Positions 7,172 to 22,744 of a DNA stretch of 64,000 nt are shown here, piece by piece. How positions within the stretch are numbered: the first letter of the stretch is position 1; each line of letters begins with the position of its first letter. The notes below the pieces were generated by a model, which ran no database searches, was not told the DNA's origin, and saw only the letters and a list, made by a program, of their open reading frames with translations. The DNA lies in the NCBI GenBank assembly GCA_965202665.1, contig OZ241841.1, positions 544,001 to 608,000 of the forward strand, read 5' to 3'. This stretch comes from Candidatus Spongiisociaceae bacterium (GTDB lineage Bacteria; Actinomycetota; Acidimicrobiia; Spongiisociales; Spongiisociaceae). The translations under genes and the position numbers were made by a program.

Positions 7172-8395
7172 TTACAGGTTGGAGGCGAAATCCAGGGCTT
7201 CTGTAAAACCGGCGTCCTGTAGGAGGAGACGGCGCAACTTCATCAGGGGGCCCACTCGGTCGATGGCGAACACGCCGCCCAGCCGGTCGCCGCGGCGGTA
7301 AAGGGCCAGCAACCCCGGCTCGTCCGGAGGATCGTCGACGAAGACCACCTCCTCCTCGGAGGCCAACCCCGCCAACTGCAAGCGGTGGCCGTACTGATCC
7401 GACCAAAAGTAGGGGATGCCGTCGTAGGCGACCGGCTCCTCCCCGCTCATGACATTGCAAATGTTGCGGGCGGCGGCCGCCGCTTGCTCCACCGTGTTCG
7501 TCCAGTGCTCCACCCGTATCCGCCCCCCGAACCGCCGGCTGTCCCAAGCCGCCAAATCCCCCACCGCGTAAACGTCGGGGAGGGAAGTGCGCAGAAACCG
7601 GTCGCAGACCACCGCCCCCCGCTCCGTTTCCATCCCCGAACCCTCCAACCATTCCGTGTTGGGGATCACCCCGATTCCGACCACCATCGCCCCGCACCGC
7701 TCTTCGCTTCCATCCGACAGTTCCACCGCCAGCTCCGATGACTCCTCCCGCGCGCCCGACACCCCCGTCCCGCACCGCAGCTCCACCCCGTACCGTCCGT
7801 GCAAGGCGGCGCATCTCTCCCCGACCTCCCGGCCCACGGCCGCCGCCAACGGCTGCTCGGCGGCCTCGGCGATGATCACCTCCAAACCCCGGCTGCGGGC
7901 GGAGGCCGCCACTTCGCTCCCGATGAAACCGGCCCCCGCCACCACCAACCGGCGGGCCGTTTCCAACGAGGAGCGGATAGCGGCCGCATCGTCCAAGGTT
8001 CTCATCACGTGCATCCCCGGAAGTTCGCCGACGCCGGGGAGCCAGCGGGCCCGGGAGCCGGTGGCGACCACCGCCGCCTCGTAGGCCAGTTCCTCCCCGT
8101 TCGCCAGACGGACGGTGCGGGACGCGGCGTCCCAACCGACCGCCGCCGTCCCCAGCCGCAAAACTATGCCCTGTTCCTCAAAAAACTCCGGCGGGCGCAA
8201 CAGCGCCTCGGAGGGTTGCTTCTCCCCGGTTAGAACCTCTTTGGAAAGCGGGGGGCGGTCGTACGGCGGGTGCGGTTCGTCCCCCACCAGGGTGATTGGG
8301 CCGGGGAAGCCGAAAGTGCGCAAAGCCGCCGCCGCCCGCAGTCCGCCCAGCGAAGCCCCCACCACCACCGCCGCCGGGGAAGAAGAATCGGTCAC
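7172..8395 (-). CDS. FAD/NAD(P)H-dependent ferredoxin reductase (glutathione-reductase type)
   Basis: GASLGG, PYDRPPLSK, GAGFIGSE, VYAVGD, RVEHW and PYFWSDQY motifs. Confidence 0.92.
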   Translation of the reverse strand: MTDSSSPAAVVVGASLGGLRAAAALRTFGFPGPITLVGDEPHPPYDRPPLSKEVLTGEKQPSEALLRPPEFFEEQGIVLRLGTAAVGWDAASRTVRLANGEELAYEAAVVATGSRARWLPGVGELPGMHVMRTLDDAAAIRSSLETARRLVVAGAGFIGSEVAASARSRGLEVIIAEAAEQPLAAAVGREVGERCAALHGRYGVELRCGTGVSGAREESSELAVELSDGSEERCGAMVVGIGVIPNTEWLEGSGMETERGAVVCDRFLRTSLPDVYAVGDLAAWDSRRFGGRIRVEHWTNTVEQAAAAARNICNVMSGEEPVAYDGIPYFWSDQYGHRLQLAGLASEEEVVFVDDPPDEPGLLALYRRGDRLGGVFAIDRVGPLMKLRRLLLQDAGFTEALDFASNL

Positions 8396-9468
8396 CCGGC
8401 GGGGGCCAGCTCAAAGACGCCGTCGGCGATTTCCATCAGCCACCGCCGATAGAGGACGGTTCCCAAATCGGCCGCTTTGACATGCATCTCGGCGCTCAAC
8501 TCCACCGGCAACTCCTCCGGGCGCTGGGATTCCACAACCGGTTTGTCCTGGGCGAGGATGATCCGTTGCATGCCGTCGAACTCCTCGTCCATGTCCAAGG
8601 CGTAGTTGCGGGCCATGAAGGTGAAACAGCGGGTCCGTTTCCGTCCCACCGGGGCCACCGCCACGAACAGTATGTAATGCTCGTCGGGGCCGGCCGAGCT
8701 GTCCAGCCACATGGCGTTGGGCATGAACACCCGGTATCTCTTCCAAGCCTCATAGGTTTCCCCCACGCCGGACACGGCCGAATTCTTGGGGTTGTCGGTG
8801 TATTCCAAAAAGGGCCCGGCCGTGATGCGAATCTCCCCTCCGTAACGTTCCGCCTCGTAGTCGGCGATCACCGGGTTGTCGCGATCCCCCAATATTCCAT
8901 GATGGACATGGGCGAAATGGGAGAAGTCAAAATAGTTCTCCAGCCGCCGACCCACCGAGCAGTCCCACTCGTAGGGATCCCAGTGCATAACACGATAGGA
9001 GGGGTCGTCTAGTTCCGGCAGGACGGCGGGCGGGAAAACGGGGGTTTCGCCGCCCAGGCAGGTCCACACCAGGCCCCCCGATTCCACAGCCGGGTAGACG
9101 GGAAGTTGGGCCTTCAGTTTGCCGTTCAACTCGGGCCGGGCGGGGATGTCCGCCACCGCGCCGTCCTTGTCGTAGGCCCACCCGTGGTAGGCGCAACGCA
9201 AAAAACAGCCGTCGATGCGGCCCAAGGCCAACGAAGAGCCGCGATGCCGGCAGATGTCGTCGAATACGTAAGGTTGGCCCTCCAAACGGGCCACCGCCAA
9301 ACGGGTGTCGAACAGGGTGACCTGATGGGGTTCGTCCGTCAGATCCTCGGAGAAGGCCACCGGATGCCAGAAATGCCGCAACTGTTCGTAGAGCTTCGTC
9401 TCGCCGGCCACATCCAGCTGGGTGTTTCCCTGCACCTCCAACAAGTCGCCTGCCTGCTGCATAACCAC
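8392..9468 (-). CDS. Rieske non-heme iron oxygenase, methylxanthine N-demethylase (NdmA/NdmB)/VanA-like
   Basis: LRHFWHPV, Rieske ligands CRH...CAYH, RRLENYFDFSHFAHVH iron site, QDKPVVESQRP. Confidence 0.85.
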   Translation of the reverse strand: MVMQQAGDLLEVQGNTQLDVAGETKLYEQLRHFWHPVAFSEDLTDEPHQVTLFDTRLAVARLEGQPYVFDDICRHRGSSLALGRIDGCFLRCAYHGWAYDKDGAVADIPARPELNGKLKAQLPVYPAVESGGLVWTCLGGETPVFPPAVLPELDDPSYRVMHWDPYEWDCSVGRRLENYFDFSHFAHVHHGILGDRDNPVIADYEAERYGGEIRITAGPFLEYTDNPKNSAVSGVGETYEAWKRYRVFMPNAMWLDSSAGPDEHYILFVAVAPVGRKRTRCFTFMARNYALDMDEEFDGMQRIILAQDKPVVESQRPEELPVELSAEMHVKAADLGTVLYRRWLMEIADGVFELAPAG

Positions 9469-9472
9469 CTCC

Positions 9473-21893: not shown

Positions 21894-21940
21894 CCTCAGG
21901 TCAATGGAACATGGAACGCATGGGACATAAGGAGGCTTTG

Positions 21941-22744
21941 ATGTTGACACCCGGGGTTCGCCATGGCTACGCGGCGGGGGCGGAGGGCAACCGACTGCAC
22001 TTTCTGGACTTCGGGGGGAAGGGTCCGTCGCTGGTGTGCCTGCACGGGGTGACCGGCAACGCTTGGAACTGGCATGCGGTTGCGACTGGGATAAGGGGCA
22101 GGCGGCGGGTGTCGGCGGTGGACTTGCGCGGCTACGGGGAAAGCCAATGGTCGGCTTCCCATGCCTACCGGACCGTCGACCACGTTGCGGACTTGGCCGC
22201 CCTGGTGGACGGCTGGGAGGAGGAGCGGGTGGATGTGATGGGTTCCTCCTGGGGGGCTTTGATCGCCCTTCAATACGCGGCGGAAAACCCGGGCCGGGTG
22301 GGGCAGCTGGTAGTAGTGGACGTGGAGCCGTCCTTCGCGCAAGGCGAAACCGACCTGTTTCCCCGCCCGACCAGCCACGCCGACATGGAAGAAGTGAAAA
22401 AAGGGGTGGAGGCCGCCCATCCCAACGCCGACCGGGAGATGGTGGAACTTACCGCCGCCCTCTGTTACGGGCCGGTGGAAGGGGGACGGCTGGCCCCCAA
22501 ACACGACCCATTTTTCTTTGAGCGATGGCCGTTCCGCTCCGATGACCATTGGGATCGTTTGGAGCGGTTGGAGGCGCCCGTCCTGTACGTGCACGCCGCC
22601 GGCAGTTTCGTGAAAGGGGAGGTGATGGCGCAGATGGCGGAGCGCACCCCGGACGGCCGTTTGGCGGAAGTGGCCGACAGCTCCCATGTGGTCCCGGTGG
22701 ACAACCCGGCCGGTCTGGTAGTGGCGACTCTGCCTTTCCTGTGA
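21941..22744 (+). CDS. Alpha/beta hydrolase
   Basis: AGGAGG RBS before ATG 21941; LHG, DLRGYGES, GSSWG nucleophile elbow, SHVVP. Confidence 0.88.
   Translation: MLTPGVRHGYAAGAEGNRLHFLDFGGKGPSLVCLHGVTGNAWNWHAVATGIRGRRRVSAVDLRGYGESQWSASHAYRTVDHVADLAALVDGWEEERVDVMGSSWGALIALQYAAENPGRVGQLVVVDVEPSFAQGETDLFPRPTSHADMEEVKKGVEAAHPNADREMVELTAALCYGPVEGGRLAPKHDPFFFERWPFRSDDHWDRLERLEAPVLYVHAAGSFVKGEVMAQMAERTPDGRLAEVADSSHVVPVDNPAGLVVATLPFL

Follow-up and report, generated by a model that had tools for sequence, protein, structure and literature searches.

Among described systems, the one closest to the locus examined here is the caffeine cluster of Pseudomonas putida CBB5, which comprises the Rieske N-demethylases NdmA and NdmB, NdmCDE, frmAB and a permease. 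Its frmA and fghA genes, encoding a formaldehyde dehydrogenase and a formyl hydrolase, lie beside the demethylases, and methylurates have been reported as dead ends (PMC4408171). The bacterial disposal of methylated nucleobases is otherwise little known, the first description of N2,N2-dimethylguanine hydrolase dating from 2026 (PMC13054789). Here we analyse a 14-gene cluster (positions 7172-22744) within a window of 64,000 nucleotides, the whole stretch of DNA under study, from Candidatus Spongiisociaceae bacterium (GCA_965202665.1, contig OZ241841.1, positions 544,001-608,000 of the forward strand); if our interpretation is true, the cluster provides candidate enzymes for this gap. A first-pass annotation of this DNA had proposed an undescribed pathway for methylpurine-type substrates, which finds support in two Rieske oxygenases nearest to NdmA/B, a guanine-type BMP binding protein and a deaminase, with the substrate remaining putative.

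As in CBB5, the cluster has Rieske paralogs such as would serve one methyl position each, similar to NdmA/B in fold, metal ligands and motifs and perhaps in most pocket residues, and free-living carriers of related genes also have a related NCS2 permease. Unlike the CBB5 cluster, it would use a ferredoxin and an FAD reductase (or a VanB-type one) in place of NdmD, and it lacks NdmC, NdmE and frmAB; it has instead a fixed short-chain dehydrogenase/reductase (SDR) and alpha/beta hydrolase, a guanine-class deaminase and BMP-ABC import, in a family without the downstream uricase pathway. We propose that it imports N-methylated guanine-type purines and removes the methyl group, via hydroxymethyl and formyl intermediates, as formate, the ring probably staying intact. 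As a whole, we hold this reading to have a little under an even chance of being correct. An N-methylpurine-type substrate is probable; given such a substrate, the SDR/hydrolase route to formate is slightly favoured.

The two Rieske oxygenases

Both Rieske proteins, RO-A and RO-B, possess the CxH..CxxH Rieske site, the 2-His-1-Asp iron site and three motifs (RHFWHPV, RRxENxxDFSHF and DKPVxESQxP), each of which occurs in only 2 of the 2102 called proteins of the genome. These motifs had been linked to NdmA and NdmB in the first-pass annotation, which is correct for NdmA; in NdmB the first two are present and the third takes the variant form DxPVxESQxP, and two HpxD proteins and the VanA compared lack them. 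Even close orthologs may lack one of the motifs (RHFWHPV, for example, is absent from RO-A's ortholog in G020), so that the three are markers of a broader clade and not of NdmA/B membership. The best solved relatives of RO-A were NdmA (4e-48) and NdmB, and those of RO-B were NdmB, NdmA and GxtA, almost equal. Sequence identity amounts to 31-34% with NdmA/B, 31% with HpxD and 23-28% with VanA, and structural identity with SxtT/GxtA to 26-28%.

In a 42-row IQ-TREE mixture-model tree, RO-A and RO-B fell in a 13-row clade (support 95/94), and NdmA/NdmB together with three unnamed proteins formed its sister group (97/86); HpxD branched outside, and VanA was the root. Orthology to NdmA or NdmB was not found at these identities, approximately unbiased (AU) tests having rejected the pairings of RO-A with NdmA (p 1.6e-4) and of RO-B with NdmB (p 4e-56). 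At the seven NdmA pocket positions F168, F174, F223, L248, N282, V285 and F286 (bioRxiv 2021.12.17.472166), RO-A reads Y/F/K/L/Q/I/L and RO-B F/F/N/L/E/V/L against F/F/F/L/N/V/F in NdmA, position 223 lying in a poorly aligned loop. RO-A has the NdmB-like Q/L at positions 282/286, and all RO-B rows aligned have Glu at 282, a residue that could pair with an amino group or a ring N-H. The two enzymes thus belong to an uncharacterised clade that likely works like NdmA/B, though they are not members of that group.

Some results tell against this functional reading. The sister relation to NdmA/B was not recovered in a 21-row LG+G4 tree, and AU tests left unrejected the groupings of the clade with HpxD (p 0.25) and with a single long-branch VanA (p 0.19); in FastTree, NdmA/B, HpxD and the clade form an open fork. 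The kinship anticipated earlier therefore holds as a sister relation in the best tree, not as orthology. The C-H hydroxylases SxtT/GxtA scored nearly as well as NdmA/B against RO-B (1.6e-36 versus 1e-40), and with the predicted RO-A model (pLDDT 89.7) NdmA ranked first by E-value, with SxtT/GxtA next at equal or higher TM-scores. The trees did not include SxtT/GxtA; L130, considered as a stand-in for SxtT, was too distant (1e-34).

HpxDE and SxtT/GxtA belong with the window enzymes to a broad group of Rieske enzymes whose substrates have purine or guanidinium scaffolds, but they hydroxylate carbon, HpxD on hypoxanthine/xanthine and SxtT/GxtA on saxitoxin scaffolds. If RO-A and RO-B did likewise, the SDR and the hydrolase might open the ring and replace the uricase pathway, which would suit the unrejected HpxD grouping, the closeness of SxtT/GxtA in sequence and fold, and a family without uricase and hydroxyisourate (HIU) hydrolase. 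We regard this as improbable. HpxD lies outside the clade in both trees, lacks the three motifs and has a GRQxEGFxDVAHF segment that differs in the window enzymes; the deaminase is of the guanine-deaminase (GuaD) class; and both Burkholderiaceae carriers of the module described below have HIU hydrolase genes, so that the module is no stand-in for it there.

The unrejected VanA grouping, together with the label vanillate O-demethylase that many Rieske homologs bear in JGI annotation and the esterases among the sequence and fold matches of the hydrolase, would accommodate O-demethylation of methyl ethers, be they methoxypurines such as mucronatine or others, via a hemiacetal, a formate ester made by the SDR and an esterase; methoxypurines do occur in sponges (PMC5793054). 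VanA is, however, less similar to the window enzymes than NdmA/B are, and DdmC ranked far below NdmA in sequence and fold. Hemiacetals of aryl ethers, moreover, decay unaided, and we consider O-demethylation very unlikely.

The closest tree relatives of NdmA/NdmB were unnamed Rieske proteins (L122, L133 and L110) encoded near adenosine-deaminase-family genes or an NCS2 permease; from this context they are candidate methyladenine demethylases.

A core of Rieske oxygenase, dehydrogenase and hydrolase

RO-A had a match in 20 of the 24 other genomes of the family (17 of them with an ortholog of at least 83% identity) and in none of the 16 genomes of the order's other families, a set that includes the unpublished genome G039, which bears on no conclusion. 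The hydrolase was present in 19/25 family genomes and 0/16 others, and a molybdoenzyme ortholog (at least 73%) in 17/25 family genomes. Genome G008 has neither the molybdoenzyme nor an RO-A ortholog, yet keeps RO-B, SDR, hydrolase and deaminase; from this pattern and the ortholog distribution, the family's cluster resolves into a core, made up of RO-B, SDR, hydrolase and deaminase, to which the molybdoenzyme and RO-A form an addition. Genes flanking the cluster in the window are common to G001, G008 and G015, which suggests that the locus was inherited. Relatives have up to 10 Rieske paralogs, additional SDR, deaminase and BMP paralogs, and a flavin oxidoreductase.

Outside the family, the soil species Paraburkholderia silviterrae (locus L080) has, in one run, genes for a LysR regulator, a VanB-type reductase, SDR (54% identity to the window protein), RO-B (44%), hydrolase (48%), an NCS2 permease and a deaminase (44%, and 51% to the closest family paralog). 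A marine contig (L176) has the same run, and another Burkholderiaceae genome (L191) has it without the deaminase, as a five-gene operon with no molybdoenzyme. The P. silviterrae permease scores above the PbuX xanthine-permease cut-off (486 versus 414 bits) and shares 51% identity with the permease in a Pseudomonas ndm cluster, a value that may or may not exceed that of ordinary xanthine permeases. Within the Burkholderiaceae, the hydrolase profile matched 3 of 296 scored genomes, two of which have the module; in the third (G163) the context is different. Among 35 metagenome loci with the hydrolase, an SDR occurs in 20 and a Rieske enzyme of the clade in 21; for the 20 loci of at least 3 kb these counts are 15 and 14, three of the misses being a distant subfamily (40-41%) in another context. 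FrmA, FghA or mycothiol-dependent formaldehyde dehydrogenase appeared in none of the 35. The conserved core is therefore Rieske enzyme, SDR and alpha/beta hydrolase, from sponge Acidimicrobiia to soil Paraburkholderia. The distribution check suggested earlier thus found the cluster conserved in the sponge family, but its core extends to soil bacteria and consists of these three genes. The first-pass annotation had given no role to the SDR and the hydrolase, which turn out to be the most constant partners of the Rieske enzymes.

The SDR has intact catalytic motifs and an Asp after strand 2, which we take to indicate an NAD-type enzyme. The Ser-Asp-His set of the hydrolase is invariant in 9 aligned rows, and its subfamily is small (9 clusters at 299 bits or more, followed by a drop); in the ESM Atlas, its matches were generic alpha/beta hydrolases only. 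Its fold matches were a curacin thioesterase, then the amide hydrolase 3KXP (TM 0.80) and the deformylase Nfo (4L0C, 24%), a fold compatible with, and not diagnostic of, the deformylase that we predict. A parallel exists in p-toluenesulfonate methyl oxidation, in which the Rieske methyl hydroxylase TsaMB is followed by the SDR TsaC. There, on carbon, an aldehyde dehydrogenase carries out the third step. The corresponding N-linked product is an amide, so that the SDR would have to be followed by a hydrolase, as found here. As both proteins belong to families unlike the frm pair and are retained by hosts that should possess glutathione or mycothiol routes for formaldehyde (shown for the window genome, assumed for Burkholderiaceae), we read them as acting on a substrate-bound one-carbon (C1) unit. 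If they oxidise it to formate, a formaldehyde-release assay would be falsely negative in the full system.

The two NdmA/B-like demethylases might instead release free formaldehyde, with the deaminase and the molybdoenzyme carrying the base to uric acid for nitrogen and energy and the SDR and hydrolase being unrelated or acting downstream. The kinship and pocket of the Rieske enzymes suit this as well, and the window genome encodes two mycothiol-dependent formaldehyde dehydrogenases, FDH and a PucD-type xanthine dehydrogenase (XDH); endocyclic hemiaminals, that is, N-hydroxymethyl groups on the ring, decay unaided (PMC12392094). We nevertheless find it unlikely, as the SDR and hydrolase genes adjoin a Rieske gene across two phyla, including the operon of L191, the molybdoenzyme lacks the PucD glutamate, and uricase and HIU hydrolase were found in 0/25 family genomes.

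Other genes accompany the module in relatives. A CrtO-like flavin oxidoreductase (L030:16409-18013) is highly conserved in the cluster of most relatives and in soil contigs (orthologs of 75-77% in L166 and L167); it was not found in the window genome, G000 (best match 30%). An acidimicrobiial version of the cluster has a Cpn10 gene between Rieske paralogs (L074:10237-10629, L075:7794-8186), and a second sponge-associated lineage has genes for a cupin, a GcvT-like protein and a cytochrome P450 after the hydrolase (L193, L194, L158). A second Rieske module, RO-C (L053:2930-19688, L059:2608-10497, L044:2440-13721), includes a Zn-dependent alcohol dehydrogenase (Zn-ADH), an aldehyde dehydrogenase, an SDR, a CN hydrolase and UbiD, and in L053 also an NMT1/THI5-type transporter; judged by these genes, it looks like a module that oxidises a methyl group of another heterocycle to a carboxylate and then decarboxylates it.

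Substrate class, proposed pathway and metabolic setting

The amidohydrolase, earlier called deaminase-like, is by its catalytic residues a real deaminase with the full set of the GuaD class (HxH, Gln after strand 1, HxxE, His and Asp). This Gln marks the guanine-deaminase class, with guanine-type substrates, whereas the cytosine-deaminase class has its Gln after strand 3 (PMC12828455). Guanine-type substrates are thus indicated by Q85 rather than adenine or isoguanine. Isoguanine belongs to the cytosine-deaminase class, and the earlier suggestion of methylated guanine, isoguanine or adenine narrows to its first member. Within this 1,6-addition class, the Q/E/H/D set is common to NdmH (the N2,N2-dimethylguanine hydrolase), 8-oxoguanine deaminase and AtzA/AtzB, and NdmH provides a precedent for a methylguanine as native substrate (PMC13054789). 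Unlike NdmH, the window enzyme has C216-P-E-N219 in place of the CQxxN motif after strand 4 (NdmH sequences themselves were not aligned). Its identification as 8-oxoguanine deaminase was rejected (262 bits against a cut-off of 532), the genome having a separate true copy, 34% identical.

Eight deaminase paralogs in relatives have HxSA for HxSE, with Ala in place of the N3-protonating Glu and the Gln, His and Asp kept (Table 1). By these residues, they would fit 3-methylguanines or cationic guanines; sponges contain methylguanines, including 3-methylguanines (PMC5793054).

GuaD-class enzymes read only the C-N-C-O core and accept purines, pyrimidines and triazines (PMC12828455), and AtzA was the top PDB match of the window enzyme. 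A pterin, a lumazine or another 2-amino-4-oxo heterocycle might then be the substrate, with ring or C-methyl hydroxylation by the Rieske and molybdenum enzymes, the SDR acting on a side-chain alcohol, the hydrolase cutting an acyl chain and the deaminase working on the 2-amino-4-oxo face; C-C cleaving alpha/beta hydrolases do occur in nicotine catabolism. This seems to us quite unlikely in view of the PbuX-type permease of the free-living module, the NdmA/B-like Rieske pocket and a BMP protein far closer to AtzT (1e-30) than to TpN38 (1e-4).

AtzT, the closest solved BMP, binds guanine through Y45, S97, E165, W194, N218 and N220 (PMC6834077). In a pairwise alignment, three of the six positions are kept or conservative (W79, S133 and W231, that is, the aromatic sandwich and the Ser), whereas the hydrogen-bonding E165, N218 and N220 have given way to N202, E255 and F257. 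Such changes are what a methylated ligand would require, and the purine-binding role first assigned to this protein agrees with its closest solved relative, its ligand being putative. The PbuX-type permease, the AtzT-like BMP and the GuaD-class glutamine support purine specificity independently of the Rieske kinship.

The supposed XDH-family subunits do form a three-subunit molybdenum hydroxylase, but not a canonical XDH: it is quinoline-2-oxidoreductase-like by sequence. Its large subunit matched QorL at 6.5e-148 and XDH at 7e-42 in the PDB, and all NCBIfam models, including all XDH models, scored below cut-off. In XDH, the substrate-orienting Glu after GGxFGxK/R is numbered Glu232/802; the window protein has Thr264 where the genome's separate PucD-type paralog has Glu, and keeps the C-terminal Glu760. 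A form I aerobic CO dehydrogenase, whose loop is AYxCSFR, was likewise rejected (loop AYRGFG; 493 versus 991 bits). Caffeine dehydrogenase CdhABC, which oxidises C8, and QorLMS are likewise three-subunit molybdenum hydroxylases of the CoxL/Qor branch acting on N-heterocycles; in contrast to the CdhABC system, TmuM/HpxO, TmuH and TmuD homologs were not found in the window genome.

Taken together, these features would fit the following route. The BMP-ABC system, clear in its family, may import the base. RO-A and RO-B, fed by the reductase and the ferredoxin, would hydroxylate N-CH3 groups at different positions, as their kinship to NdmA/B suggests. The NAD-type SDR would oxidise the hemiaminal (N-CH2OH) to N-CHO, from which the Ser-His-Asp hydrolase would release formate, a proposed chemistry for two genes whose linkage is observed. 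This step would be most needed for slow-decaying hemiaminals, e.g. exocyclic N2-hydroxymethylguanine; for guanine, cytosine and adenine, the exocyclic type of hemiaminal has greater stability than the endocyclic type (PMC12392094). Because of this slow decay, N2-methylated guanines are the first candidate substrates, followed by 7- and 1-methylguanine and herbipoline. The GuaD-class deaminase would turn a free-N3 methylguanine into a methylxanthine, likely by C2 deamination. In the least certain step, the molybdoenzyme, whose genes travel with that of RO-A, would probably hydroxylate the methylated base at a carbon adjacent to a nitrogen. The yield in the window genome would be guanine or xanthine for salvage, C1 units and ammonia; free-living carriers would feed the product into ordinary urate catabolism.

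Several purine synthesis genes (purM, purD, purC and purL) were not found in the window genome, with all 14 controls positive. PurA, GuaA, GuaB3, HGPRT and APRT are present, and a PurH match lies below the TIGR cut-off and above that of PRK00881. Both purM and purD are missing from 15/25 family genomes and 2/16 others, which suggests that this family of symbionts has lost purine synthesis repeatedly; the loss is patchy within genera, and purH is kept in the window genome. OHCU decarboxylase, HpxO and allantoicase were not found in the window genome, and with uricase and HIU hydrolase also not found, known aerobic ring breakdown is unavailable. Ring catabolism is doubtful, then, and the catabolic ring oxidation proposed at first finds no backing here, nor in the quinoline-2-oxidoreductase-like molybdoenzyme: "catabolism" would go no further than the removal of methyl and amino groups. 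A better fit is salvage or C1 scavenging, given the missing pur genes and the salvage enzymes kept. Salvage as a real benefit in this genome is a tentative proposal, with somewhat less than even prospects.

Beyond the formaldehyde dehydrogenases and hemiaminal decay considered above, further observations weigh against the proposed import, demethylation and salvage. The top fold match of the hydrolase is the curacin thioesterase and no deformylase; a scan of 13 long or otherwise unusual proteins, out of 150 listed, showed no SDR-hydrolase fusion; and in three relative loci a Zn-ADH 40-42% like the genome's two mycothiol-dependent formaldehyde dehydrogenases lies just downstream. With no Xpt found in the window genome and no GMP reductase beyond one GuaB3, deaminated products may be unsalvageable, and the PucD-type XDH, present with the 8-oxoguanine deaminase, could divert xanthine. 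A correlation of the module with purM/purD loss was not seen, the two genes lacking in 12/19 carriers and 3/6 non-carriers (kin, and so not independent).

Rieske demethylation of methylpurines is a known kind of reaction, and the clade, the partner set, the guanine-type entry and the likely salvage role are likely new. In its fullest form, the idea would be a modular methylguanine demethylation (new Rieske clade, hemiaminal dehydrogenase and deformylase, yielding formate without free formaldehyde) that symbionts expanded, through the many Rieske paralogs and the Glu-to-Ala deaminases, to harvest host methylpurines as the purine supply of pur-less lineages; we think this rather unlikely in all its parts. 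The literature covered contained no description of the cluster or of demethylation by Rieske enzyme, SDR and deformylase, most subscription journals (including the one with the family's description) and supplements lying outside the search; the accessible text of PMC11706023 does not mention purines. If true, our proposal would give Rieske N-demethylation a new, formaldehyde-free end and provide position-specific catalysts for methylpurines. It would also provide a bacterial fate for the methylated purines of sponges and RNA turnover, and would tie sponge methylpurines metabolically to a widespread family of symbionts often without purine synthesis. It is directly testable in P. silviterrae, a named, isolated species that has the six-gene core.

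Gene content and neighbouring features

Genes were identified from open reading frame (ORF) calls, Pfam and NCBIfam profile searches and PDB sequence matches (Table 1); all genes named in the first-pass annotation were recovered with their spans and orientations. The genome is a single 2.77-Mb contig, 94% complete, and sponge metagenomes are among the sequencing sources carrying this DNA. The minus-strand run has 12 genes, from the SDR (20337) to the reductase (7172), with intergenic gaps of -8 to +173 bp; the amidohydrolase and the hydrolase diverge from it across 122 bp, as first described. The G+C content of the cluster is 65.5%, versus 64.1% for the genome. The ABC ATPase gene is split into two ORFs (16045-17193 and 15626-16831). 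All four sequencing runs examined, one otherwise identical over the contig, have an extra homopolymer base at 16417, so the split is a one-base assembly error and the gene intact in the organism; a pseudogene is rejected. In G001 it is a single 511-aa ORF.

Table 1. Genes of the cluster (window coordinates) and HxSA deaminase paralogs of other loci
Feature	Position	Strand	Basis
FAD/NADH ferredoxin reductase, HcaD/AndAa-like	7172..8395	-	Pyr_redox_2 + Reductase_C; NCBIfam HcaD 257 bits, below cut-off
Rieske monooxygenase RO-A, 356 aa from ATG 9462 (ORF opens 9468)	8392..9462	-	Rieske + VanA_C; best PDB match NdmA 4e-48
Ferredoxin, 66 aa, single cluster, likely [3Fe-4S] by sequence; Cys 11/17/55/56	9473..9673	-	Fer4_13/Fer4_15
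Molybdenum hydroxylase small (2Fe-2S) subunit	9752..10288	-	Fer2_2, Fer2
Molybdenum hydroxylase FAD subunit	10288..11172	-	FAD_binding_5, CO_deh_flav_C; start from gene call
Molybdenum hydroxylase large subunit, quinoline-2-oxidoreductase/CoxL-like	11169..13598	-	Best PDB match QorL 6.5e-148
ABC permease 1	13595..14488	-	BPD_transp_2
ABC permease 2	14481..15629	-	BPD_transp_2
Two-domain ABC ATPase	15626..17193	-	ABC_tran in both pieces of split gene
BMP/PnrA-family lipoprotein, lipobox Cys26	17206..18318	-	Bmp; closest solved relative AtzT, 6PI5 1e-30
Rieske monooxygenase RO-B, 350 aa, core-module member, Glu297 at NdmA position 282	18492..19544	-	Sequence, alignment, tree
Classical SDR, core-module member	19588..20337	-	Motifs TGGARGIG, NNA, YVASK
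Amidohydrolase subtype III, guanine-deaminase class	20460..21893	+	H80, H82, Q85, H245, E248, H282, D333
Alpha/beta hydrolase, small distinct subfamily, core-module member	21911..22744	+	GSSWG Ser113, Asp137, His259
HxSA deaminase paralogs	L038:15960-17372, L046:17251-18654, L034:340-1746, L025:6712-8097		
HxSA deaminase paralogs, continued	L048:811-2205, L026:15085-16575, L033:13925-15304, L162:10770-12242		

Elsewhere in the window, three tandem paralogous membrane-anchored proteins (4823-7153, plus strand) have a common N-terminal domain, Cys-x-Cys in two of them and no Pfam match. On the minus strand, 22754-29770 encodes a secreted 2338-aa protein with leucine-rich repeats and SLH domains, the G+C content falling to 48% at 24-26 kb, and 42315-44098 an NgoMIV-type restriction enzyme and a C5 methyltransferase. 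A low-G+C region (41-52%; 50798-55005, minus strand) contains two unannotated stop-free frames of ~856 and ~550 codons, and an ISL3 transposase and an rve integrase-core fragment lie at 62281-63974.

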